Positions 4,926-51,039 of a DNA stretch of 64,000 nucleotides are shown one piece after another; the first letter of the stretch is position 1; every line of letters begins with the position of its first letter. This DNA is from Escherichia coli (GTDB lineage: Bacteria > Pseudomonadota > Gammaproteobacteria > Enterobacterales > Enterobacteriaceae): the NCBI RefSeq assembly GCF_003991155.1, contig NZ_CP031293.1, one strand, 5' to 3'. The notes under the pieces were generated by a model that was not told the DNA's origin, did no database searches, and saw only the letters and a list, made by a program, of their open reading frames with translations. The position numbers were made by a program, and so were the translations under genes.

Positions 4926-6155
4926 ATGAAAACAACAGCTCTGCGTCTTTATGGTAAACGTGATTTACGCCTGGAAACCTTTGACCTTCCTGAAATGCAG
5001 GAGGATGAAATCCTCGCAACGGTGGTCACTGACAGCCTGTGCCTCTCTTCCTGGAAAGAGGCCAATCTGGGGGAAAACCATAAAAAAGTACCCGACGATG
5101 TGGCGACCAATCCCATCATCATCGGCCACGAATTTTGCGGCGATATTCTGGCCGTGGGTAAAAAGTGGCAGCACAAATTCCAGCCGGGTCAGCGTTATGT
5201 GATTCAGGCCAACCTGCAACTCCCCGACCGCCCGGACTGCCCCGGCTACTCCTTCCCGTGGGTAGGCGGCGAAGCGACGCATGTGGTTATTCCCAACGAG
5301 GTCATGGAACAAGATTGCCTGCTGGCATACGACGGCGAAACCTATTTTGAAGGCTCGCTGGTTGAACCGCTTTCCTGCGTGATTGGCGCGTTCAACGCCA
5401 ACTATCATCTTCAGGAAGGTAGTTATAACCACACGATGGGGATTCGCCCGCAAGGGCGCACGCTGATCCTCGGCGGCACCGGACCAATGGGACTGTTGGC
5501 GATTGATTATGCGCTACATGGACCCGTTAACCCTTCGCTGCTCGTCATTACCGATACCGACAACGACAAATTGAGTTATGCGCGCAAGCACTATCCATCA
5601 GAACCGCAAACACTGATTCATTATCTCAATGCCACCGATGCAGCATTTGATACGTTAATGGCGCTGAGTGGCGGTCACGGCTTCGATGATATTTTCGTCT
5701 TTGTGCCTAATGAAGGACTGGTGACTCTCGCCTCTTCCTTGCTGGCGACAGATGGTTGCCTGAATTTCTTCGCCGGACCGCAGGATAAGCACTTCAGCGC
5801 GCCAATTAATTTCTACGATGTGCATTATGCATTTACCCACTACGTAGGCACGTCAGGCGGCAATACCGACGACATGCGCGCAGCGGTCAAATTGATTGAA
5901 GAGAAAAAAGTGCAGGCCGCAAAAGTGGTAACACATATTCTTGGGCTGAATGCCGCGGGCGAAACCACGCTTGAATTGCCTGCCGTCGGCGGCGGGAAAA
6001 AACTGGTGTATACCGGGAAATATCTGCCGCTGACATCACTCACGCAGATTCAGGATGAAGAACTGGCGGCGATTCTGGCGCGTCATCAGGGAGTCTGGTC
6101 CGGCGAGGCGGAGCAGTACCTGCTCGCCCATGCAGAGGCGATTTCCCATGATTAA
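4926..6155 (+). CDS. sorE: L-sorbose-1-phosphate reductase, Zn-dependent alcohol dehydrogenase (MDR) family
   Basis: ORF 4914-6155; preferred start ATG 4926 after GAGGTGG; MDR-type motifs (GHEFCG; GGTGPMG nucleotide-binding loop); last sor gene. Confidence 0.7.
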   Translation: MKTTALRLYGKRDLRLETFDLPEMQEDEILATVVTDSLCLSSWKEANLGENHKKVPDDVATNPIIIGHEFCGDILAVGKKWQHKFQPGQRYVIQANLQLPDRPDCPGYSFPWVGGEATHVVIPNEVMEQDCLLAYDGETYFEGSLVEPLSCVIGAFNANYHLQEGSYNHTMGIRPQGRTLILGGTGPMGLLAIDYALHGPVNPSLLVITDTDNDKLSYARKHYPSEPQTLIHYLNATDAAFDTLMALSGGHGFDDIFVFVPNEGLVTLASSLLATDGCLNFFAGPQDKHFSAPINFYDVHYAFTHYVGTSGGNTDDMRAAVKLIEEKKVQAAKVVTHILGLNAAGETTLELPAVGGGKKLVYTGKYLPLTSLTQIQDEELAAILARHQGVWSGEAEQYLLAHAEAISHD

Positions 6156-6960
6156 TCGCGATACTCAACTCTGCATGTCGCTGGCCGGCTGCCCCGGTAA
6201 CTTCGGCACGCGTTTTCACAATTATCTTTATGAAAAGCTGGGGCTGAATTTCATCTATAAAGCGTTCACCACCCAGGATATTGCAGCGGCGGTGAAAGGG
6301 GTTCGCGCGTTGGGTATTCGCGGTTGCGCTGTGTCGATGCCGTTTAAAGAAAGCTGCATGCCTTTTCTCGACGCGATCGATCCGTCGGCGAAGGTCATTG
6401 ATTCCGTGAATACCATCGTGAATGACGACGGCAGGCTGACCGGGTTTAACACCGACTATATCGCGGTGAAAAGCCTGATTACCCACCACCAGCTCAATAC
6501 CACCACGCGAGTGATGATTCGCGGCAGTGGCGGCATGGGCAAAGCGGTGATTGCCGCCTTTCGCGACGCGGGGTTTACGGATGTTATCATTGCCGCCCGC
6601 AACCGCGAGAGCGGCCCGGCGCTGGCGAAGCAGTATGGGTTTCAGTGGCAACCGCAGCCGGAAGGCATCGCCTGCGACATTCTGGTCAACGTGACGCCCG
6701 TTGGCATGAGCGGCGGTAAAGAGAGCCATGAGCTGGCCTTCAGCGAAGCGATGGTCTCAACGGCAAGCGTCGTTTTTGATGTCGTGGCCTTGCCGCCGGA
6801 AACGCCGCTCATTCGCCTGGCGCAACGGCTTGATAAGCAGACGATTAGCGGTGCGGAGGTGATTGCTTTACAGGCCGTCGAGCAGTTCGCAATGTATACC
6901 GGCGTACGGCCTGATGCGCAACTGATTGCTGAGGCGGCACAATTTGCACGAGAAGGATAA
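6148..6960 (+). CDS. Shikimate 5-dehydrogenase-like (AroE/YdiB family) NAD(P)-dependent dehydrogenase, function in this context unknown
   Basis: ORF 6055-6960; preferred start ATG 6148 overlapping sorE stop (ATGATTAA); AroE-like motifs SMPFK and NTDY, glycine-rich GSGGMGKA. Confidence 0.6.
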   Translation: MINRDTQLCMSLAGCPGNFGTRFHNYLYEKLGLNFIYKAFTTQDIAAAVKGVRALGIRGCAVSMPFKESCMPFLDAIDPSAKVIDSVNTIVNDDGRLTGFNTDYIAVKSLITHHQLNTTTRVMIRGSGGMGKAVIAAFRDAGFTDVIIAARNRESGPALAKQYGFQWQPQPEGIACDILVNVTPVGMSGGKESHELAFSEAMVSTASVVFDVVALPPETPLIRLAQRLDKQTISGAEVIALQAVEQFAMYTGVRPDAQLIAEAAQFAREG

Positions 6961-7082
6961 GAAACATCAGCGCCTTGTTTGCCACGCCAGAAGCAATGCG
7001 CAACATCGTGAGCCATGTCAGTAAGCGGTTAAAATCACAGTGGTAGCATGGCTCCCGTGATTTCTTACTAACCGGAGAAGTA

Positions 7083-7772
7083 ATGGAACTGCTTTTATTG
7101 AGTAACTCGACGCTGCCGGGTAAAGCCTGGCTGGAACACGCGCTGCCGCTGATTGCTGAACAGTTGCAGGGTCGCCGTTCAGCGGTATTTATTCCTTTCG
7201 CTGGCGTAACGCAGACCTGGGATGATTACACAGCGAAAACGGCTGCGGTTCTCGCTCCGCTGGGTGTTTCTGTCACCGGTATTCATAGCGTTGTCGATCC
7301 CGTTGCCGCGATTGAAAATGCTGAGATCGTGATTGTCGGCGGCGGGAATACTTTCCAGTTGCTGAAACAGTGCCGCGAGCGCGGGCTGCTGGCACCAATT
7401 ACTGACGTGGTGAAACGTGGCGCGCTGTATATTGGCTGGAGCGCAGGCGCTAACCTTGCTTGCCCAACCATTCGTACCACCAACGATATGCCGATTGTCG
7501 ATCCGCAAGGTTTCGATGCGCTGAATCTGTTCCCGTTGCAAATCAACCCGCACTTCACCAACGCGCTGCCGGAAGGCCATAAAGGTGAAACGCGTGAGCA
7601 GCGTATTCGCGAACTGCTGGTCGTCGCGCCAGAACTCACAATTATTGGTCTACCGGAAGGTAACTGGATCACGGTGAGTAAAGGTCACGCTACGCTGGGT
7701 GGCCCGAACACCACTTATGTGTTTAAGGCTGGTGAAGAAGCGGTGCCGCTGGAAGCGGGTCACCGTTTTTAA
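7083..7772 (+). CDS. pepE: Peptidase E (alpha-aspartyl dipeptidase)
   Basis: 229 aa; [14 protein letters not shown]-terminus; SD GGAGAAG; conserved position next to yjbB. Confidence 0.9.
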
Positions 7773-7777
7773 GTGAA

Positions 7778-7852
7778 TTGCCGGATGCATAATCCGGCAT
7801 CTTGTTCATCGTGCCTGATGCGACGCTTTACGCGTCTTATCAGGCCTACAGG
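7778..7852. repeat. REP (repetitive extragenic palindromic) elements
   Basis: gccggatgcataatccggc and gcctgatgcgacgc...atcaggcctaca palindromic units between convergent pepE and yjbB. Confidence 0.7.
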
Positions 7853-7861
7853 GTCACGGTA

Positions 7862-9493
7862 TTAATACTCGTCCCGTCCTTCGTCTTCATCCGGCTGTTC
7901 CAGCACACTGTAAGCCACCGAACAAAACAGCGAGTTCAGACGCTGCATATCTCCCAGTAAGCCTAAATGTAGCGAACTGGTTTCAATGCTTTGCACGTTT
8001 TGCTGATGCAGGCGATCGACGTGAGCATGGGAATAACGGCGATTAAGAATGCGAAAGCGATGCTTGCTGCGGCGCAAACGACGGGCGCTGGTAACATCGC
8101 CAGAGAAGAAAACCGACATTGCCAGTTTTAAATTACTGAGCAATTGCTCATAGAGCGCATCCAGTTCCTTCAAGCCATCAAGCGAAAATGCCCGCCGTGC
8201 TGCCAGCGATTTATCGGCAATTTCGCTCCCCATGCGCTCGACGATATCGGAGGCCTGTTCAAGGTTGAGCGACATTTCGATGATCTCCGCCCAGCGGCGC
8301 GACTCTTCCTCCGCCAGCTCTTCTTTTGGCATCCGCGCCAGATACAGCTTAATGGCGGTATAGAGAACGTTGATATCATCTGCCAGCTTACGCAGCTCTT
8401 TCTCCTGCCGTGGCTCGCCGTGCATCACTTTATTCAGCCCTTCCATCATCTGTTCCATGGCGTCGCCAATGCGCAGGGTTTCGCGCGCGGCGTTCGCCAG
8501 AGCAAGCGTGGGCGTATCCAGCGCGCTGACATCCAGATGTTTGGGTCGTAGCTGGGTATCCAGTTCCGGTTCATCGCGAATAATCGTTTTGCAAAACCGT
8601 GCCATCGGGTCAACAAATGGCAGCATGACCAGGCAGCGTACAAGGTTGTAGAAGACGTGGAAATAGATCACCAGTTCCGCTTTTGGCAGTGGCAACTTCC
8701 CCATTGTCTCTGCCAGCAAATGGACAAACGGCAGGATAATCAGGCTACCCACCAGCTTAAACAGCAGGCTACCCAGCGCGACACGGCGGGCTGCGGCATT
8801 GGCGGCACTGTTGTTGAGCATCGCCAGCAGACCGGAACCGAGGTTAGCACCAATCACCAGACAGAGCGCCACGGGGAAGGAGATAATGCCTGCGGCGGTC
8901 AGAGTCGCGGTCAGCAGTACAGCAGCAAGGCTGGAGTAGCTGATAATGGCGAACATCGCGCCAATCAGCGCATCCAGCAGAATATCGCCGGTCAGCGAGG
9001 CAAAGATCACCTGAACGCCGTTTGCCTGGGTGATCGGCGTTACGGCCTGCACAATCAACTCCAGCGCCAGCAAAATCAGCCCAAGACCAATACCGACGCG
9101 GCCCAGTTGCCCGGCGCGTGACTGTTTGCGTCCGAGGAAAAAAATCACGCCGATAAAAATAAGTAACGGTGACAGCCAGGATAAGTCGAAGGTGAGAATA
9201 CGCGCCATTAGCGCCGTCCCGACATCTGCACCCAGCACAATCACCAGAGCCGGTGCGAGGGCTACCAGATCCTGAGCGACAAACGAGGTCACCAGCATGG
9301 TGGTGGCATTACTGCTCTGCACCAGTGCGGTAACGCCTATCCCCGCGCAAAAGGCGAGCGGCTTCTTTTCGACGCTTCGGCTAAGAACAGTACGCAGACG
9401 CGCGCCGAAGACGCGCATTACGCCGGTTCGAACAATATGAGTCCCCCAGACCAGCAGGGCGACGGCAGAAAGCAGGTGAAGCAAAGTTAGCAC
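7862..9493 (-). CDS. yjbB: Na+/phosphate symporter-like inner membrane protein (PhoU-domain containing)
   Basis: 543 aa; GTG start with GGAGAA upstream; multi-TM N-terminal half plus charged PhoU-like C-terminal half. Confidence 0.85.
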   Translation of the reverse strand: MLTLLHLLSAVALLVWGTHIVRTGVMRVFGARLRTVLSRSVEKKPLAFCAGIGVTALVQSSNATTMLVTSFVAQDLVALAPALVIVLGADVGTALMARILTFDLSWLSPLLIFIGVIFFLGRKQSRAGQLGRVGIGLGLILLALELIVQAVTPITQANGVQVIFASLTGDILLDALIGAMFAIISYSSLAAVLLTATLTAAGIISFPVALCLVIGANLGSGLLAMLNNSAANAAARRVALGSLLFKLVGSLIILPFVHLLAETMGKLPLPKAELVIYFHVFYNLVRCLVMLPFVDPMARFCKTIIRDEPELDTQLRPKHLDVSALDTPTLALANAARETLRIGDAMEQMMEGLNKVMHGEPRQEKELRKLADDINVLYTAIKLYLARMPKEELAEEESRRWAEIIEMSLNLEQASDIVERMGSEIADKSLAARRAFSLDGLKELDALYEQLLSNLKLAMSVFFSGDVTSARRLRRSKHRFRILNRRYSHAHVDRLHQQNVQSIETSSLHLGLLGDMQRLNSLFCSVAYSVLEQPDEDEGRDEY

Positions 9494-9663
9494 GGAATCA
9501 GGTTCTCCTTTTTGTTATGCATTTTCCTGTTAAGATTTTTCTAATCACGTTATTTTTATCCAGGCATTTCTCTTGTATGTACTTTCAGTATAAGAGATTT
9601 ATACAAGAAAGCATTTAAAAAGGCATTTATATAAAAATCCACCTGTATCTGTTGCTATTTCTG

Positions 9664-10113
9664 TCACACTTTCCCCTGTCGTTTACACCAGATAATCGTT
9701 GTCACTTTTGTGACCTCTGAGAAGATAAACAACGAAATATTTAAGACCAGATCCTGTGAATGAAAATAATTAAGTAACAACGGTATTACGGAGATTGAAC
9801 AGCTTACGGTAGCAAAACGCATAAACTCCTGAATCGCCAAAAAAGAGAAACTAAATAATTCTTGTCTTAAAAAACATTGCGCAGAAAAGAATAAAGAGAA
9901 CAATAATACTATTTGTAGCGTAACAGTGGCGACTGCATAAGCGTAAAAACCGCCTTCAACACCGATATCCTTAAGTAAAGAAAGTGAATGAACGATATCG
10001 GAATAAAAAGGGATACGACCATTACCAAGCGAGTAGAACAAATATGTGGCTATCGCGATAACATCCATGACACCCCAAAAAAGAAGAATGTATTTTTTAT
10101 ATTGACGTTGCAT
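9664..10113 (-). CDS. Small hydrophobic membrane protein, unknown function (accessory)
   Basis: 149 aa; ATG start with AAAGGA upstream; about 4 predicted TM segments; AT-rich codon usage unlike flanking core genes. Confidence 0.4.
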   Translation of the reverse strand: MQRQYKKYILLFWGVMDVIAIATYLFYSLGNGRIPFYSDIVHSLSLLKDIGVEGGFYAYAVATVTLQIVLLFSLFFSAQCFLRQELFSFSFLAIQEFMRFATVSCSISVIPLLLNYFHSQDLVLNISLFIFSEVTKVTTIIWCKRQGKV

Positions 10114-10155
10114 AAAGTAAATCCTTTTTACGAAAACAAATATTACCAGGAATTA

Positions 10156-10476
10156 TTATAATTGCGGGCGTTTTTGGATTAACACTCCACCCGTATTTTT
10201 AAAAATCCTGTCAGCCATACCTTCACTAAACAAGACATCGATACGCCCTTTACTTTTATCGTGATACAGAATACTGCATGAGATACACCTTATACCCTCT
10301 TTGGATTTACGAAAATCTAACCAAAAACGACCATCATAAAAGACCCACTCCACACCTGTTTTTATATTAATTATCCAATCATTATAACCTGTTGGTTTTT
10401 TTCCTAATAGTTCAGTAACTTCGGACTCTGAACATCCTTCGAAAGCAAAAAAATCTATTTCATCGATTTTTATCAT
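10156..10476 (-). CDS. Small soluble protein, unknown function (accessory)
   Basis: ORF 10156-10482 opens on TTG; preferred ATG at 10476 (MIKIDEIDFF); Trp/Phe-rich; AT-rich; no strong SD. Confidence 0.35.
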   Translation of the reverse strand: MIKIDEIDFFAFEGCSESEVTELLGKKPTGYNDWIINIKTGVEWVFYDGRFWLDFRKSKEGIRCISCSILYHDKSKGRIDVLFSEGMADRIFKNTGGVLIQKRPQL

Positions 10477-10535: not shown

Positions 10536-14219
<3,684 letters not shown>

Positions 14220-44418: not shown

Positions 44419-44530
44419 GACAGAATGTAAGAACGTAAATTTATTCCGAGCCGCTACGGAAGATGAAAAACGCAAGGTTGTTGAAAGCGTTGTGTTTTTT
44501 TATGGTAGTGCCGTCAGCAGGAATGTTGTC

Positions 44531-44571
44531 CAGGGCGAAAAGCTTCTTCCTCGTTTCGCCCTGCCTTTCTT
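44531..44571 (+). terminator. Candidate terminator of thi operon
   Basis: Hairpin CAGGGCGAAA...TTTCGCCCTG followed by CCTTTCTT. Confidence 0.45.
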
Positions 44572-44735
44572 AAAATAACGTCTCAGTACGCTATTTCATG
44601 ATTGCCCGCAAAAATATTCATTAATATTTCTATTGTTTTAACAAAGAAGGCACAAGGCTTTAATTGCAAAGCAAGATCGCCGTCAAAACAAGAGTGTGCA
44701 ATAACCGGTTATAATAATTCCACCCTCACCAAAAT

Positions 44736-45386
44736 ATGGTCCAGAACATCATGTCAGCTTACCTAAAAAAAGCGTTATCGATTCATAGTGATGAATTTCG
44801 CCCATACGGAAACGTAATTTCTGCAATAAATGTAGATTCATTGCTTAAATACCTTAAAGAGGAAATTTCTGTACCTGAGGATCAGGTGGCATATGTCAGA
44901 AGCGATGAGCGCTTAAAGCAATACCCCGCCGTGAGCGACATTCAGCGCCAAATCTACGGTGGAATGCCCGTTCAGGCTGGGTACGTTTGTGGGGTAAATA
45001 CCACCCAGGATGGCTTTGAATATCACCAGGGAAGTGAAGTCATTATCGCCGCCAGCGATTTTTTCCTGTTTTTAGGTAAACGAGAGTTGATGCAGGGTGA
45101 CACGTTTAATGGTGAACGTGCAGAGCCGTTTTTCATTCCGGCAAAATCGGTGATTGAACTTTATAGCACAACGCTACATTACTGCCCTATGAGTATCAAT
45201 GCACAACCTTTTAGTGCAGCGATTATTCTTCTTGATGGAACTAATGAAGATATTGATGGCAAGAATAAACCAACAATATTAAGCAAGCGAAATACCTGGT
45301 TTATCGCCCATGAAAGTTTCACTGAGCATCCTTGCCCATTATTAAAAGGGCCGCATCTTTGCGTGAATGATATTATTCATGGGTGA
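44736..45386 (+). CDS. Cupin-fold protein of unknown function (accessory)
   Basis: 216 aa; cupin-like motifs (G..EYHQGSEV..., ...TTLHYCP...); AT-rich; alternative start ATG 44751 (MSAYLKK); no strong SD. Confidence 0.45.
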   Translation: MVQNIMSAYLKKALSIHSDEFRPYGNVISAINVDSLLKYLKEEISVPEDQVAYVRSDERLKQYPAVSDIQRQIYGGMPVQAGYVCGVNTTQDGFEYHQGSEVIIAASDFFLFLGKRELMQGDTFNGERAEPFFIPAKSVIELYSTTLHYCPMSINAQPFSAAIILLDGTNEDIDGKNKPTILSKRNTWFIAHESFTEHPCPLLKGPHLCVNDIIHG

Positions 45387-45390
45387 AAAT

Positions 45391-45410
45391 GGCGAAGATT
45401 TCTCTTCGCC
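45391..45410. terminator. Bidirectional hairpin terminator between convergent genes
   Basis: GGCGAAGA-tttc-TCTTCGCC perfect stem with T-rich flanks on both strands, between stops at 45386 and 45417. Confidence 0.5.
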
Positions 45411-45416
45411 TGTTCT

Positions 45417-48071
45417 TTACCCGGCAATTACCGCCACGCTGTCTTTTGTTCGCACGCGTGGTGGCATGGTCAGACCGCAGCGATCCCACTCATTCCCCTG
45501 CCATGCACTCGCAAAATAATAATGATTCGCTGCCGATGGGTAGACCACGACCGCCAGTTCATTACGCTTTTTTAGTAAAGACTGTGGCAAGGTGAAACGA
45601 TATTCCGGCCAGCCCTTTTCGGCAATTAACGTATCGTTAAGCCAGATAGCAACGCTTCCCTGCACTTGCGGTAAATAAAGCTCAATATCGTCGGTAATCG
45701 TCTCCAGCGCAAAGCGTAACTGATAATGTCCCGGACCACACCACGTCTCCATCCCCTGCTGCTCCCACCCTTTTGTTACCTCAACGGGTCGGGAAACGTT
45801 ATCAACCAGCAGTTGCCAGTGCTTATCCAGCACCACCTCGTGGCGACTTTCCACTACCTGCAATGAAAAGCAACGGGCCTGCCAGGGCTCGATTTGTAGC
45901 GGATAACTTCCCGTGAGATGCTCTTCCAGCACTGAAACCTCTCCCGTTGCAAGATGCCACTCCGACAACTGCCCACTGAGGCCCGGAAAATGTAGCCAGC
46001 CGTAGAGCGGGGTATCTCCGTCGTTAAATACGCTGACGTAACGCGATGTTTCATCCTGGGTAATTCGCGTCCAGACGGCAGTTTTCCGGGAGGGATAGTC
46101 AACAAAGGGGTGATCGTTTTTCAGCGTGTCGGCTAACGTGCTGCACTGCGGTTGCGCCTCAATCAGTTTTTGCAGCCTTTCGGTGAGAGAACGATCTTCA
46201 CCTTTTTCCTCGCTATATGCCGCAAGCTCGCCGGCGATCAGAAGCTGGCCACCAGCGGCGACAAAGTGCTCCAGTTGGCTCAGCGTGGCGGCTGATTTCA
46301 CCACCTTAACGTCCGCTAACAGAAGCGCAGGGAAATTCATGCCGTTAATGCGCGTTCCATCAGCCTGGAGCAAATTCTCTTCATCAATAAAGAAATATTC
46401 AAATCCCTGAGCGCTGAGTTGTTTTGCCCAATATTCGCCTGACTGCCCTTCGTTGCCATCCACGCCACAGTGCCAGAAAGTCCGTTTGGGATAGAGTACG
46501 CCAACATCAACGTACGGCTCTCCCTGCTCAAGAAATTCGGCAAGGCGACCAGATTCCTGAGCAAACCCAGCGTGGAAGGCGTACCAGGGCTGGAAGTTAA
46601 CGCCCGGCGCAAAATCAAAACGCGGGTTACTTAATACGTCGTCATTTGCCTCGCCATCCGTCAGCCAGAACGCGTGCATCAAAAATTGCCGCGCACCGAG
46701 GAGGTGATGGCGCAATGCCTGCAACCGGATGTCATGCAGTGAAATTTCCCACTGCCCGGCAGCAAAATGTGTGCATGGCTTCACCCGCGCATAATATTGC
46801 TCAACAATGCACCCTTTACGCCCATGAGCGCGCGCCACAGAGTCGCCAACCTTCGCCGCCATCTGCGGCTCGCTATTTCGCGAATCGACAGCCGTAATAT
46901 CCCGCCAGCCATCGAGAGCAAAGTAATCCATAGCAAAATTACACCGGTTATCTTCGGTGATGATTTTACTGGCGAAATTCCAGCTACTAACGTGACCTAA
47001 TACTTCATGACCACTTAGCTGTATTCCCCGCTGGTGCGCCCATTCTGACAACGTACCAAAAAAGGCCTGCATCGCCTGGCTGGAATAACAGGAAAGCAGC
47101 TCACAGCGCCGACGTGCGGTACGACTGCCAATGTCCATAACTAACGACATCAGGTTTTCTGCCAGGCAGTAAGGTGCCTGTTGCAATGCATCAACAAACC
47201 TTTTTTCATACATTAAGGAGGATTTGACCGCGCCAGTATGTTCATTCCATTGCCAGAAACAGGCGTGTGGCTGGTCGAAAAAGAGATACGCCACCGTCTT
47301 ACCAAAATGATCGCCAAAAGCGCGGGCGTAAGGTTCATAGCCGACACGAATAAAATTTTCTGCCGCTTCGGGCATCAGGTAATTAATCATCCGTGAGGTC
47401 AAGCAACGCGCCGCGGCAAAGAGCGTCACTACCGTTTCCGCACCCCAGGGCAGGTCGCTTCCCGTAAAGGTGACCTCAAATTCCTCTGTGGTTGCTTTGG
47501 TGATGCGGGCCAATGAAGAAACATCAACAATTTCATCTGCATTGCACTCCCCTGATGAAGAGGTGGCATACGCTGCGACAATTTCCCATTCATCCCACGC
47601 CGGTTTACCGCCAGCAAAAATCCACTCCATTCCACACTGCTGTAGCGCCTGCGCATCCGCAGAGCGGATCCCGGAAAGGTGACATGTCAGTACATCTGCA
47701 GACCGGCTGGACTGGCTCCAGAAAAGATGGCGCTCACGCAGCTCATCTCTCCCTTCAACGGTCCTTCCCCCGGCGTGCCCGGAAAGCCAGTTGTAATCAT
47801 CGTAGATGCCCATCATCAGCCCAATATTGGCAGCTTTATCAGCCGTGTAGCGACAGGCTGCCAGCCACTCCTCACTGAGATAACTCTCCAGCGGAAGACT
47901 CAGACGTGCGGCTATCTGAAATGAACCATACCCTCCCGCCTGCAGTTGCCTCAGTTGGCTGTCGATCTGCTTTTTGTCCGGAATGGTATGCCAGAACCAG
48001 TAGGTTGCAGGCAGGTGCCATACATCAGGATTTTTAAAGTTTTGGCGTGCCTGTGCTAACGAATCATTCAT
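45417..48071 (-). CDS. Large cytoplasmic hydrolase-like enzyme, probable glycoside hydrolase with C-terminal beta-sandwich; family unassigned (accessory)
   Basis: ORF 45417-48104; preferred start ATG 48071 (MNDSLAQARQNF) preceded by AAGGGGGA and overlapping upstream permease stop; 884 aa; no signal peptide; aromatic-rich N-terminal region. Confidence 0.55.
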   Translation of the reverse strand: MNDSLAQARQNFKNPDVWHLPATYWFWHTIPDKKQIDSQLRQLQAGGYGSFQIAARLSLPLESYLSEEWLAACRYTADKAANIGLMMGIYDDYNWLSGHAGGRTVEGRDELRERHLFWSQSSRSADVLTCHLSGIRSADAQALQQCGMEWIFAGGKPAWDEWEIVAAYATSSSGECNADEIVDVSSLARITKATTEEFEVTFTGSDLPWGAETVVTLFAAARCLTSRMINYLMPEAAENFIRVGYEPYARAFGDHFGKTVAYLFFDQPHACFWQWNEHTGAVKSSLMYEKRFVDALQQAPYCLAENLMSLVMDIGSRTARRRCELLSCYSSQAMQAFFGTLSEWAHQRGIQLSGHEVLGHVSSWNFASKIITEDNRCNFAMDYFALDGWRDITAVDSRNSEPQMAAKVGDSVARAHGRKGCIVEQYYARVKPCTHFAAGQWEISLHDIRLQALRHHLLGARQFLMHAFWLTDGEANDDVLSNPRFDFAPGVNFQPWYAFHAGFAQESGRLAEFLEQGEPYVDVGVLYPKRTFWHCGVDGNEGQSGEYWAKQLSAQGFEYFFIDEENLLQADGTRINGMNFPALLLADVKVVKSAATLSQLEHFVAAGGQLLIAGELAAYSEEKGEDRSLTERLQKLIEAQPQCSTLADTLKNDHPFVDYPSRKTAVWTRITQDETSRYVSVFNDGDTPLYGWLHFPGLSGQLSEWHLATGEVSVLEEHLTGSYPLQIEPWQARCFSLQVVESRHEVVLDKHWQLLVDNVSRPVEVTKGWEQQGMETWCGPGHYQLRFALETITDDIELYLPQVQGSVAIWLNDTLIAEKGWPEYRFTLPQSLLKKRNELAVVVYPSAANHYYFASAWQGNEWDRCGLTMPPRVRTKDSVAVIAG

Positions 48072-49563
48072 GGCTTTCCCCCTTCTTAATCGGCGGAACA
48101 TCACAATGACAAATGTATGTCAAAATGGCATACAGCGCCGCGCCCACCAGCATCGCCACCACTACGCCAATATTTGCTGTCGCAAACACGCTGGTTTTGG
48201 TTTCTGCCGTCAGTAAGAAGCCGACCAGGTGAGCAATCCACGGATCGCCTGAGGTGATGGTTCCCATGCCGATAACCGATGCAACAAACAGCGATAATAA
48301 TGCCGTCCAGCGACCGTTACGCCCGCCAAGCCCCGCGGGCTGCGCCATATCAGTGTTCCAGTGCAAGCGTTTTTGCCGGGCAAAGTCGACAAGCTGGATT
48401 GCGCCCATCGATCCCAATACGACGGATACCGTTGCCAGAAAAGACTGAAAGGTTGCGAGGAACGAGTCAGAAACAAACAATAAGTAGAAGGCACCGAATG
48501 CGATAATGACCGCATTGATAGCAGTGGTGGTTGAACGACTGGCTGGAACGCCCATTGCCAGCAATGCGAGGCCTGAGCTGTAAACACCTGTAATGGCTGC
48601 CGCCAGCAGGGAGATGATGATCACGATTGAAAACGGCACATAGAACCAAAACGGCAGGAACGAGGTTAAGGCCGCAATCGGTTCGGACGCTGCTGCTCCG
48701 CTCAGTTCCGGGTTACTGTCGGCCAGCAGGGCACCTAAAATCAGCAGGATGGAAACCGGAAGCGAAATCCCAAGCGACGTCCAGAAAATCACTTTCCCGG
48801 CAGCGGTTTTGCGCGGCAGGTAACGGGCGAAATCACCGCCATAGTTGAGAAAGCCCAGCCCAACCATCGTCATTGCCATCACCATGCCGCCGATAAACGT
48901 TAAAAATCCGGCATCGGGAGCAGCACCCGCCTGCGACCAGTGAATATGTGGCAGGATCAGGATAATAAAGATGATGCTCATTCCGCCCGTTAACCATGCA
49001 ATATACTTTTCTACCTTCATGATGAGCTGGTGGCCGTAGATGGCAACGGACATAGTCAATACTAAGGTCACCACGAACCAGCCCAACAGGCACCCTAAGG
49101 TAGGGTGACCGTTTTCTGCTGCAAATACGGTTGGCCATAACCGGGCAAAGAGGGCGGCGCCAGTGGTCGAGGACAACGTAATAATGGTGATTTTCCAGCC
49201 CATATTGGAAATATAGGCAAATAAAGTGGGGATCTTATTCCCATGATAACCAAAGGCAAATCGGGTCTGCGTTAAGGTAGGCAGCCCGGTGCGTGGCCCA
49301 CCAACGGCCAGAACCCCCACCAGCGTGCTGGATAAAAAATAGCCCACGACACCGGCAACAATCGCCTGCCAGAGGCTTAACCCCAGTGAGTAAACATAAA
49401 TCCCATAGGTAATACCGAGGATGGATACATTCCATGAAAACCAGATCGGGAAAAGTCCGGCAGGCGAACCATAACGTTCGTTATCACTAACCGGGTTTAC
49501 CCCATTGGTTTCCACCTTCATCGTACCTGAAACATCAGATGGGTTCTGGGCTTGGCTCGTCAT
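48064..49563 (-). CDS. NCS1-type (nucleobase/nucleoside/vitamin cation symporter-like) permease (accessory)
   Basis: ORF 48064-49755; preferred start ATG 49563 (MTSQAQNPSD) preceded by GAGAGGA; 499 aa, about 12 TM; N-terminal P..ER...F..WFS.N motif resembling NCS1 family. Confidence 0.55.
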   Translation of the reverse strand: MTSQAQNPSDVSGTMKVETNGVNPVSDNERYGSPAGLFPIWFSWNVSILGITYGIYVYSLGLSLWQAIVAGVVGYFLSSTLVGVLAVGGPRTGLPTLTQTRFAFGYHGNKIPTLFAYISNMGWKITIITLSSTTGAALFARLWPTVFAAENGHPTLGCLLGWFVVTLVLTMSVAIYGHQLIMKVEKYIAWLTGGMSIIFIILILPHIHWSQAGAAPDAGFLTFIGGMVMAMTMVGLGFLNYGGDFARYLPRKTAAGKVIFWTSLGISLPVSILLILGALLADSNPELSGAAASEPIAALTSFLPFWFYVPFSIVIIISLLAAAITGVYSSGLALLAMGVPASRSTTTAINAVIIAFGAFYLLFVSDSFLATFQSFLATVSVVLGSMGAIQLVDFARQKRLHWNTDMAQPAGLGGRNGRWTALLSLFVASVIGMGTITSGDPWIAHLVGFLLTAETKTSVFATANIGVVVAMLVGAALYAILTYICHCDVPPIKKGESHE

Positions 49564-49564
49564 T

Positions 49565-50782
49565 TTATTTCCTCTCATATTGAGCAAGACGTGATAGTAC
49601 GGCTTCATACTCAGGCATGTTCGATGCGCCTTCCCGCTCGACCGCCAGAGAAGCAAACGCAGAGGCAAATTTTGCTGCACTGAGCAACGGCTGGCCCTGC
49701 GCAATCGCCGCAGCAAACGCACCGTTAAACGCATCCCCCGCACCGGTGGTGTCAATACTTACTGCTTTTAACGCTGGAATATGGGTAAATTGTTCACCGT
49801 CATAAATCAGCGCCCCTTGAGAACCCATCGTAATAATGATGTTTTTTGCCCCCAGGGATTTTATGGTTTGCGCCGCTTCTTTCGCACTCTCGATATCATT
49901 AATCTCGACACCGGACATCAGCGACGCTTCTGTTTCATTCGGTGTCAGATAATCAACATATTGCAGGCATTCTTTTGCCTGGTCAGAATAAGGGGCTGGG
50001 TTAAGGATAGTTTTCACGCCCGACCGATGTGCCATATTTAGTGCCAGCGTGGTTGCTTCAAAGTTATTTTCCAACTGTGTCAAAAATATTTTGGCGTCCG
50101 TCAACTCACCCGCAATACTGGCAACTTCCGCTTCAGTGATATATTGATTGGCGCCAGAATAAATCGCGATCTTGTTTTCACCAGCAGGCTCCGAAACATA
50201 TATTATGGCGCTTCCTGTTTTATGCTCTTCGTCCTGGTAGAGGGTAAAGCTGCGGATATCGGATGAAGAGAGATGATCATGCGCCATCTGGCCGAAATGG
50301 TCGTTGCCAACTTTGCCGACGAAGTGTACCTGGACGGGACATTTGCTGGCTGCCATCGCCTGGTTTGCGCCCTTGCCGCCAGGTCCAATGATGGTATTGC
50401 TGGCAAGAATTGATTCGCCGCTTTTAGGGAAGCGATCAACTTTGGCAATAATATCGACATTAAAAGATCCTAATATACAAACTTTGCTTATCATTATTTT
50501 CCCTTTTTTGTTTGTCATCGAGTTTTTTCGCCAGTTGACCTGATTGAGGAACTTTTCAATAGAGGTACCAACGTTATTAACGGGCTGAGAATGGAAAATC
50601 CGACGCAATATTATTGCTCCGCCGTGACAACGCTCAACACCCCCTTGCTCCGCTAATAAATTTAAATCATTACGGATCGTTTCTTTACTGACAGAGAATA
50701 AGATGGCGAGTTGATTAACCGTAGCCCGCTCATGTTTATTCAAATATGCCAATATTTGACGTTGTCTTTCTTTCCCAAACAT
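49565..50782 (-). CDS. Fusion protein: N-terminal DeoR-type HTH domain + PfkB-family ribokinase-like sugar kinase (accessory)
   Basis: 405 aa; N-terminal RQILAYLNKHERATVNQLAILFSVSKETIRNDL (DeoR HTH); kinase motifs GPGGKGANQA, NPAP, TPNETEA and DTTGAGDAFNGA collinear with RbsK; SD GAGGTGA before ATG 50782. Confidence 0.7.
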   Translation of the reverse strand: MFGKERQRQILAYLNKHERATVNQLAILFSVSKETIRNDLNLLAEQGGVERCHGGAIILRRIFHSQPVNNVGTSIEKFLNQVNWRKNSMTNKKGKIMISKVCILGSFNVDIIAKVDRFPKSGESILASNTIIGPGGKGANQAMAASKCPVQVHFVGKVGNDHFGQMAHDHLSSSDIRSFTLYQDEEHKTGSAIIYVSEPAGENKIAIYSGANQYITEAEVASIAGELTDAKIFLTQLENNFEATTLALNMAHRSGVKTILNPAPYSDQAKECLQYVDYLTPNETEASLMSGVEINDIESAKEAAQTIKSLGAKNIIITMGSQGALIYDGEQFTHIPALKAVSIDTTGAGDAFNGAFAAAIAQGQPLLSAAKFASAFASLAVEREGASNMPEYEAVLSRLAQYERK

Positions 50783-50985
50783 GATTTCACCTCACGTAAC
50801 ATTTATATCTTTTGTAATTTTCTGATTCCATGAATCCTTTCACACTACCATCACGAAAACAAAAACAAACGGGAATTTTTGGAGGAAAGGTTTTTTTATT
50901 CAATGGGATAGTGAGAGGGGAATGTTGTTTTGAAAAAACACTCCCGAAAAATGCGTGGGAAAGCGCTTTCAATCGTAAACGGAAT

Positions 50986-51020
50986 GCAAAAAAAAGCCAG
51001 TCAGTGTGACCTGACTGGCT
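50986..51020 (-). terminator. Rho-independent terminator of rpoC
   Basis: Minus-strand hairpin GCCAGTCAGGTCACACTGACTGGC followed by TTTTTTTT. Confidence 0.8.
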
Positions 51021-51039
51021 TATTTCTTAAGAAGAGCGA

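Follow-up and report, generated by a model that had tools for sequence, protein, structure and literature searches.

A DeoR-type helix-turn-helix fused to a ribokinase-type kinase: a probable self-regulating head of an Escherichia coli nutrient operon

Here, we analyze a 64,000-nucleotide stretch of Escherichia coli DNA (contig NZ_CP031293.1 of assembly GCF_003991155.1; hereafter, the window) and focus on a gene whose product joins a DeoR-type winged helix-turn-helix (HTH) to a ribokinase-type PfkB kinase in one polypeptide. Our reading of the sequence, to which we assign a probability of roughly 0.6, is that this protein would be a bifunctional kinase and autoregulator. Specifically, the C-terminal PfkB kinase would phosphorylate a pentose, most likely D-ribose, released by the transporter and the glycosidase encoded on the same island. 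The N-terminal HTH, carried on a flexible linker of ~36 residues, would bind two tandem repeats (AyTTCCGTTT) upstream of a class II CRP site and, by binding at its own promoter, would autoregulate a three-gene operon. The notion of a bifunctional autoregulator is the most economical because no regulator other than this HTH is a constant companion of the repeats, because the HTH is under strong selection, and because the cassettes that the gene heads carry no other regulator.

The architecture itself is already known from the work on the Salmonella protein RikA, from orf408 of Salmonella pathogenicity island 2 (SPI-2), and from RefSeq, and the window protein is a further member of the family. 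New here are a candidate operator, a model of a CRP-dependent promoter, the finding that the HTH is under selection, an overview of five cassette types, and independent support for an internal start. The interpretation of the fusion as a regulator-kinase, put forward in an initial annotation made from the sequence, is partly supported.

Architecture and spread of the fusion

Positions 49565..50782 form, exactly as the initial annotation had it, a single open reading frame of 405 amino acids (43.8 kDa) that starts with ATG; the strand, which that annotation left unstated, is minus. RefSeq annotates the same frame as one 405-amino-acid coding sequence, rbsK (WP_000467087.1). The DeoR-like winged HTH anticipated at residues ~1–55 is present, and the Pfam match to HTH_DeoR (PF08220) spans residues 6–59 (E 2e-17); NCBIfam models for GlpR, AgaR, and SrlR also match residues 1–60/75. 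PfkB (PF00294) follows at residues 100–389 (E 8e-72) and contains both of the PfkB signatures that had been quoted, GGKGANQA at 135–142 and DTTGAGDAF at 344–352. The linker had been misplaced at ~50560–50620 and lies at ~50495..50605. Pfam finds no match in the fusion protein to the DeoRC effector and oligomerization domain (PF00455), and PfkB stands there instead; thus, the protein is not a canonical member of the DeoR family and carries only the HTH of that family. Nor does Pfam find a ROK domain (PF00480, ASKHA fold) behind the winged HTH.

The 3.1-kb fusion locus is 100% identical among the complete E. coli genomes listed, and at least 80% of it is covered in 49 of 5,426 complete E. coli genomes. 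A domain architecture search with a census of the fusion, which the initial annotation had proposed, finds both domains together well beyond this species: in a search of 5.8 billion proteins, more than 100 clusters of ~400 amino acids carry PF08220 and PF00294. Their genera are Superficieibacter, Salmonella, Serratia, Rahnella, Pectobacterium, Dickeya, Erwinia, Brenneria, Aeromonas, and others. Fusions of ~400 amino acids span the Enterobacterales, the Vibrionales, Aeromonas, and Shewanella. A second search, of a library clustered at 50% identity, gave full-length fusions, down to 36% identity, as ~20 of its best 150 matches; unfused ribokinases are mixed in from about the 15th match and fill the remainder of the 150. 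Named carriers in this library are Enterobacter/Kluyvera, Shewanella, Photobacterium damselae, Vibrio nigripulchritudo, Aeromonas jandaei, Morganella, Citrobacter, Izhakiella, and one Martelella. The species spread rests on these protein-cluster searches, the N-terminal profile search of genome contigs being uninformative as a census: among the matches listed, the N-terminal alignment scan returned nearly all plain ribokinases and two fusions. In Pectobacteriaceae bacterium C52, the fusion is annotated as a pair, a 138-amino-acid DeoR protein and a 292-amino-acid ribokinase, either because the gene is a frameshifted pseudogene or because it is naturally split.

An intact ribokinase-type kinase

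The kinase domain passes the NCBIfam ribokinase model TIGR02152 (313.5 bits; cut-off 299.65) and stays below the cut-off of the stricter model NF008353. Its closest solved relatives in a sequence search of the PDB are the ribokinases of Vibrio cholerae and E. coli (~1e-54), and it shares 36% identity with E. coli RbsK over 295 aligned residues, the RbsK sequence having been confirmed against PDB 1GQT. In this alignment, RbsK residues N14, D16, G41, G42, K43, N46, E143, N187, E190, T223, G225, G228, A253, G254, and D255 are all identical in the fusion protein, where they correspond to N108, D110, G135–K137, N140, E238, N282, E285, T318, G320, G323, and A348–D350. The set includes every ribose contact checked (N14, D16, G42, K43, N46, and E143, equivalent to N108, D110, G136, K137, N140, and E238), the NXXE motif (N282–E285), and residues of the anion hole (G347-A348-G349-D350). 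D110, G136, and K137 are invariant, and N140 and E238 are at least 90% conserved, in a 31-sequence alignment; N108 is invariant only in a 15-sequence alignment. The 12 RbsK residues comprising the first nine listed and A253, G254, and D255 are invariant or at least 90% conserved in close homologues. Judged from these residues, the domain is most likely a catalytically competent, ribokinase-type enzyme; the loss of key kinase residues, which the initial annotation had named as a sign of a pseudo-kinase, is not seen at any catalytic or ribose-contact position checked.

A homologue has been characterized. RikA (STM3547) of Salmonella Typhimurium LT2 was described by McCormick, Jabbar, and Escalante-Semerena (Mol Microbiol, June 2026; PMC13432705) as a protein of 404 amino acids with a PROSITE DeoR DNA-binding domain at residues 2–57 and a PfkB domain. 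The protein acts as a ribokinase both in vivo and in vitro, D343 is essential, and pentoses besides ribose are poor substrates (PMC13432705). That study assayed kinase activity only (PMC13432705).

Distant fusions can depart from this pattern. P0126 (with PNAHAAS), P0133 (FNVSQAS and GAYD), P0147 (IGQSEAE and GAND), P0152 (GMMD), and others have, in the alignment, lost the NXXE motif or a GAGD glycine and kept the catalytic Asp and the HTH. The HTH–PfkB family may include dedicated sensors that are heading to a noncatalytic state, as in the ROK repressors.

Selection on the DNA-binding domain

The HTH codons evolve like those of the kinase. Specifically, the ratio of nonsynonymous to synonymous substitution rates (dN/dS; Nei–Gojobori) is 0.045–0.055 in the HTH versus 0.041–0.050 in the kinase, and synonymous sites are close to saturated. 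Purifying selection on the HTH is thus as strong as that on the kinase. Mean pairwise identity is 62% in the HTH and 67% in the kinase versus 33% in the linker. The AlphaFold2 (AF2) model, built on the 31-sequence alignment, reflects the same division: predicted local distance difference test (pLDDT) scores are 78–95 in the winged HTH and above 90 in the kinase, and fall below 50 in residues 61–96.

A conserved predicted promoter with a candidate operator

Upstream of the fusion gene, one layout recurs in nine of nine loci of the cassette types A–C described below, loci whose promoters share ancestry within a cassette type and that count as a phylogenetic footprint, not as nine independent events: tandem repeats, 12 bp, a CRP-like 16-mer, exactly 21 nt, and TAnnnT. 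The repeats have the consensus AyTTCCGTTT followed by ryTTyyGTTT, and the 16-mer reads TGTGA-N6-TCAnn, with two mismatches to the CRP consensus. The transcription start was predicted by the usual 7-nt gap after the −10 hexamer, and the distances of the CRP-like site and the repeats from the start (Table 1) rest on that prediction. The layout survives across bacterial orders in which synonymous sites are saturated, which argues for function.

To score the repeats, a position weight matrix (PWM) was built with one cassette type left out at a time, the matrix coming from the other two types only. The window site is the top match of 127,962 positions, at 22.8 bits versus 15.2 for the runner-up. 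The upstream site ranks first of 30,000–128,000 positions in eight of the nine loci; in Dickeya it ranks second to a further copy, which lies 84 bp upstream of it within one intergenic region. A degenerate pattern of the repeats matches once in the 64-kb window, which is weak alone, given that shuffling produced one match or more in 23 of 100 trials. The SPI-2 gene orf408 has the same arrangement, ACTTCCGGTT, 12 nt, TGTGATTGAATTCACC, 21 nt, and TACAAT, in the region upstream of it (5903..6000 of its locus); the site is the best PWM match in that locus, and the CRP-like site has one mismatch. A repeat that travels with the gene through unrelated cassettes is what a self-regulating HTH–kinase predicts.

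Further copies lie at a distance. The window has a distal exact copy of TTCCGTTT, which could serve as an auxiliary operator or in looping. In Dickeya, the distal repeat copy (7821..7840) is exact, and a perfect CRP site, TGTGATGGCTTTCACA, comes after it; in Superficieibacter, the distal copy has one mismatch.

A predicted internal start within the linker

The initial annotation had argued from a continuous frame with one Shine–Dalgarno (SD) sequence. The single 405-amino-acid frame stands, but a second SD-like element, AAGGG, precedes an in-frame ATG at M97, four codons before the kinase domain. A product that began there would have 309 amino acids (32.8 kDa), the length of RbsK. The signal AAGG[GA] (AAGGC in Aeromonas), 6–7 nt, ATG is present in nine of nine loci, inside an otherwise variable linker. 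The duplex with the anti-SD sequence at the internal ATG has an energy of −5.3 to −7.8 kcal/mol in eight of the nine; the annotated starts give −6.9 to −8.3, and other ATGs in coding sequences average −1.2 to −2.8. From its sequence, M97 appears usable as a start codon, as in the case of RikA Met90, and the signal counts against the picture of a single polypeptide with one SD.

We considered and rejected the internal Met as a family-wide rule. Among 120 close homologues, the residue is Met in 86, Thr in 25, and Val in 6, with Met absent in 34, and in an alignment of distant fusions about half, including orf408, lack it. It is a clade feature.

The operon, the island, and the cassettes

The fusion is the first gene of a three-gene operon, and its placement as such in the initial annotation is sound: the rpoC terminator lies upstream, and the permease ATG follows the TAA stop of the fusion after one base (TAAAATG). 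The permease gene overlaps the third gene by 8 nt. Coordinates are collected in Table 1.

Table 1. Features of the fusion gene, its upstream region, and its operon in the window
Feature	Position	Strand	Basis or remark
Whole fusion gene: DeoR-type winged HTH, ~36-residue linker, ribokinase-clade PfkB kinase	49565..50782	-	Pfam, NCBIfam, RbsK alignment
DeoR-type winged HTH, residues 1–59 (Pfam match 6–59)	50606..50782	-	Pfam, AF2, dN/dS
Variable linker, residues 60–96, predicted flexible, one short helix (74–85)	50495..50605	-	AF2, identity
PfkB kinase domain, residues 100–389; catalytic Asp350 at 49735..49733	49616..50485	-	Pfam, RbsK alignment
Internal initiation-like signal: AAGGG (50505..50501), 6 nt, in-frame ATG of M97 (50494..50492)	50492..50505	-	Sequence, duplex energy
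SD GAGGTG of annotated start M1	50788..50793	-	Sequence; duplex −7.0 kcal/mol
Predicted −10 hexamer TATAAA	50802..50807	-	Inferred from TAnnnT conservation
CRP-like site TGTGAAAGGATTCATG, TGTGA-N6-TCACA with 2 mismatches, center ~−41.5 (class II geometry)	50829..50844	-	Same place in 9/9 loci
Candidate operator: tandem 10-bp direct repeats ATTCCCGTTT GTTTTTGTTT, ~−81..−62 from predicted start	50857..50876	-	PWM, conservation
Distal exact copy of TTCCGTTT, 110 bp upstream of proximal repeat, right after rpoC terminator	50977..50984	-	Sequence
Intrinsic (rho-independent) rpoC terminator; shields island operon from rpoBC read-through	50994..51021	-	Sequence scan
Gene 2: NCS1 (purine-cytosine permease family) transporter, 499 amino acids	48064..49563	-	TAAAATG junction with fusion
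Gene 3: 884 amino acids, predicted glycoside hydrolase, distantly GH106-like	45417..48071	-	Profile and AF2 fold matches
DUF4867 gene (sugar isomerase family), convergent with operon	44751..45386	+	Annotation, neighborhood comparison

No Pfam domain was found in the 884-amino-acid protein, which is labeled "hypothetical protein." Its family is large and widespread, mostly in Streptomyces, Bifidobacterium, and other Actinobacteria, with some in Firmicutes. Its profile matches the glycoside hydrolase family 106 (GH106) rhamnosidases 6q2f and 5mqm/5mwk (BT_0986), and its AF2 model (pLDDT 89) has as nearest folds the GH106 alpha-L-rhamnosidases (6q2f, BT_0986), followed by GH42. From these fold matches, the protein probably represents a new glycoside hydrolase family or subfamily.

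Together with the DUF4867 gene, the operon makes up an island of ~6.6 kb (window ~44419..51039) between thiH and rpoC in 49 of 5,426 complete E. coli genomes; the DUF4867 gene is also counted in 49 E. coli genomes, the same number as the fusion locus. In Superficieibacter electus, the same operon occupies the same site, directly downstream of rpoC. In Serratia fonticola, the DUF4867 gene (12440..13033 of its locus) is co-directional and last in the cassette, and it is a local inversion that parted the gene from the operon in E. coli. The family defined by DUF4867 is that of the sulfoquinovose isomerase in the Firmicutes sulfo-transaldolase (sulfo-TAL) pathway (PMC11968277, PMC7491151). Its presence may hint at an aldose–ketose isomerization of the cassette sugar.

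At least five different transporter/hydrolase cassettes sit behind fusion genes, and the fusion heads its cassette in every locus read. Type A consists of an NCS1 permease and a GH106-like protein of ~890 amino acids, with or without DUF4867, and is found in E. coli, Superficieibacter (there, too, beside rpoC), and Serratia fonticola. Type B, in Salmonella enterica and Salmonella bongori, pairs an ATP-binding cassette (ABC) transporter with an ADP-ribosylglycohydrolase-family protein. Type C, in Dickeya, Pectobacterium, Rahnella, and Aeromonas, consists of a dihydrodipicolinate synthase (DHDPS)-family lyase, a DUF386 protein, and a major facilitator superfamily (MFS) transporter; it is the commonest cassette and occurs mainly in plant-associated Enterobacterales. 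From its gene content, type C would fit a pathway in which a 2-keto-3-deoxy sugar acid is split to pyruvate and a pentose and the pentose is trapped by the kinase. The Citrobacter cassette (locus 6001..10194) encodes Tsx, an inosine-uridine nucleoside hydrolase, and a CNT transporter. The SPI-2 cassette of Salmonella, orf408-orf245-orf32-orf48, adds a GATase1-like protein, an alpha/beta hydrolase, and an amino-acid permease to the fusion.

None of the cassettes read contains another regulator gene, and none of the E. coli, Superficieibacter, Serratia, Salmonella, and Dickeya-type cassettes read contains another kinase gene. The Citrobacter fusion is more distant (41% identity to the window protein), and the cassette behind it is a textbook one for nucleoside scavenging; going by its genes, this cassette would be the clearest tie of the family to ribose release. 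Given the nucleoside hydrolase in that cassette, ribose would be the obvious shared product of the cassettes.

Proposed mechanism

How could a kinase report on sugar availability to its own promoter? In the bifunctional autoregulator, the kinase domain, which is a dimer in RbsK, would replace the usual DeoR sensor domain, and occupancy by ribose or nucleotide would modulate DNA binding. RbsK closes a lid on ribose and binds ATP cooperatively, which makes such a ligand switch plausible. With respect to the direction of control, the DeoR precedent would favor repression relieved by sugar; a site directly upstream of CRP would equally suit co-activation or a CytR-like anti-activation. Two products may well be made: small amounts of a full-length regulator-kinase and larger amounts of a form that begins at M97 and comprises the kinase alone. 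The internal start together with the RikA data suggests that most molecules lack the HTH.

We speculate, while regarding the full chain of steps as unlikely, that the two isoforms form a switch. Ribokinases are dimers. Short subunits would make mixed dimers with a single HTH that is unable to occupy the tandem repeats, so that occupancy would be set by the isoform ratio and by ribose-induced lid closure. The promoter, operator, CRP site, and fusion would then constitute a portable "regulated kinase head" that at least five unrelated cassettes have recruited, all plausibly releasing the same pentose, and induction would follow the common product, not each individual substrate.

Points against, and alternatives

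Several points weigh against a bifunctional autoregulator. When expressed from its native ribosome-binding region, RikA gave only a ~35-kDa protein, which fits a start at Met90 and lacks the HTH (PMC13432705). By analogy, the full-length window protein may be rare or conditional. DNA binding is a prediction from sequence for all family members, and the repeats might be bound by some other factor instead. The linker is predicted to be disordered, and the model offers no obvious allosteric route from the kinase to the HTH. No repeat motif was found upstream of the Citrobacter nucleoside-cassette fusion, and thus the operator model is confined to the clade of the window protein and orf408. A strict sigma-70 scan found no canonical −35/−10 pair at the proposed promoter, which fits an activator-dependent class II promoter and is not positive evidence for one. 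The shared ancestry of the nine promoters, noted above, also belongs here. Regarding the substrate, NF008353, a stricter ribokinase model, is not reached (277.8 bits; cut-off 341), and the DUF4867 isomerase and the GH106-like enzyme allow sugars besides ribose as the true substrate.

A serious rival, against which selection on the HTH codons is the main argument, is that the gene makes a kinase only. According to this idea, which we consider distinctly improbable, the product starts at M97, and the 96 upstream codons are the relic of a fused deoR-type gene, with little or no translation and no regulatory role. The RikA experiments are its best support: in addition to the single ~35-kDa protein made from native signals, RikA residues 90–404 are sufficient for growth on ribose, and the authors consider that the N-terminal extension is probably absent from the protein made, while still allowing for a full-length isoform under other conditions (PMC13432705). 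The internal SD and ATG in all nine loci, and a short product of exactly the E. coli RbsK length, are likewise what this alternative would have. However, a relic would have decayed, and the HTH codons instead retain a kinase-like dN/dS of ~0.05 with synonymous sites near saturation. Moreover, the SD of M1 is stronger than the internal SD in eight of the nine loci, the internal Met is missing from 34 of the 120 close homologues and from many distant fusions, orf408 included, and a conserved operator-like element accompanies the gene. The ~35-kDa RikA band itself could stem from internal initiation or from cleavage in the disordered linker, and the gel cannot tell which.

A further alternative, to which we give slightly less credence again, retains a bifunctional protein and assigns the repeats to a different factor, or to a UP-like T-rich element, with the HTH acting elsewhere or nonspecifically. 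The repeats are indeed T-rich and are placed where alpha-CTD or activators contact class II CRP promoters, and the Citrobacter member does without the motif. Against this, the CCG core and the 10-bp register are kept from Aeromonas to Salmonella, the site is the best-scoring in 13–64 kb of flanking DNA, and the fused HTH is the sole regulator that always travels with the repeats.

That the protein is a regulator with a pseudo-kinase sensor, in which PfkB senses sugar in a ROK-like manner and carries out no catalysis, is very unlikely. The degenerate motifs of some distant fusions indicate that the family can drift to a sensor. Yet the window protein and its close relatives keep all of the residues checked and the TIGR02152 cut-off is passed, the cassettes provide no other kinase, and the homologue RikA is an active ribokinase; we reject a pseudo-kinase for the window protein because the catalytic and ribose-contact residues checked are all retained. 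Finally, an assembly or sequencing frameshift that joined separate regulator and kinase genes, for which the split annotation in strain C52 is the one point in favor, is ruled out at this locus by the identical sequence in the listed independent complete E. coli genomes and by the ~400-amino-acid single frame conserved in clusters across genera and orders, so that the initial annotation was right to prefer a real fusion.

Implications

Fusion members are labeled "ribokinase," "PfkB family carbohydrate kinase," or "DeoR family transcriptional regulator," and the first two names, as used in RefSeq, hide a probable transcription factor. The family heads several nutrient islands, among them one carried by Salmonella SPI-2 and another by ~1% of E. 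coli. With the candidate operator, the promoter model, and the internal-start prediction, the question of regulation that the 2026 RikA paper left can be put to a direct test. If the bifunctional autoregulator is borne out, a PfkB kinase would join the few active enzymes (BirA, NadR, PutA) that also regulate by binding DNA, and one control module common to unrelated riboside-type cassettes would be explained. If, on the other hand, the HTH is not made, the gene would encode a third ribokinase paralogue with a conserved, idle 5′ extension, which would be puzzling given the selection on its codons.

Comparison with known systems

The window protein is most readily compared with RikA. Both have ~400 amino acids arranged as a DeoR HTH, a linker, and PfkB; both head a small transporter/hydrolase cluster; and both have an internal Met aligned to the RbsK start. 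From the paper's description, RikA Met90, its first signature at 128, and Asp343 correspond to 97, 135, and Asp350 in the window protein, a constant offset of 7 residues. The neighbors differ: RikA is accompanied by STM3548 (GATase-like), STM3549 (a DMT transporter), and STM3550 (phosphotriesterase-like), and the window protein by the NCS1, GH106-like, and DUF4867 proteins. Thus, the window protein is a paralogue of RikA, not an orthologue. STM3548, which is probably PDB 2gk3, is a close paralogue of orf245 (STM1381; PDB 3soz), and for this reason RikA is probably nearest to orf408.

SPI-2 orf408 (STM1382), located beside ttrA, is a 408-amino-acid HTH_DeoR–PfkB protein encoded by the first gene of its cluster, with the same promoter layout. 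It differs from the window protein in that its cluster is ~44% identical, its cassette is another one, and it lacks the internal Met before the kinase. In the literature, orf408 appears in gene lists only.

RbsK (1RKD/1GQT) shares with the window kinase its fold, its mechanism, and the ribose-contact and catalytic residues checked. Unlike the window protein, RbsK has no DNA-binding domain, and its regulator, RbsR, is a separate protein of the LacI type, encoded last in the rbs operon. Repressors of the DeoR family act on operons for sugar catabolism, and their operators are commonly built of tandem or direct repeats. GlpR, AgaR, SrlR, and DeoR have an N-terminal HTH_DeoR as the window protein does; in the latter, the C-terminal DeoRC domain is replaced by a whole enzyme.

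Other lineages have brought a DNA-binding domain and an enzyme together. E. coli K-12 YeiI (5701..6789 of its locus) combines a winged HTH (HTH_24, residues 1–48) with PfkB (58–348), adjoins nupX and rihB, and is annotated "putative sugar kinase"; it seems unstudied as a regulator. Its HTH belongs to another family, its PfkB domain to a pseudouridine-kinase-like clade, and its identity to the window protein is 21%, which makes it an independent fusion of a winged HTH to PfkB. More remotely, the ROK repressors NagC and Mlc have an ASKHA fold, BirA is a biotin ligase, and NadR is an NMNAT/RNK protein. These proteins and archaeal RbkR, like the window protein, place a winged HTH and an enzyme or enzyme-derived domain in one polypeptide; the likeness is by analogy only, as the folds differ.

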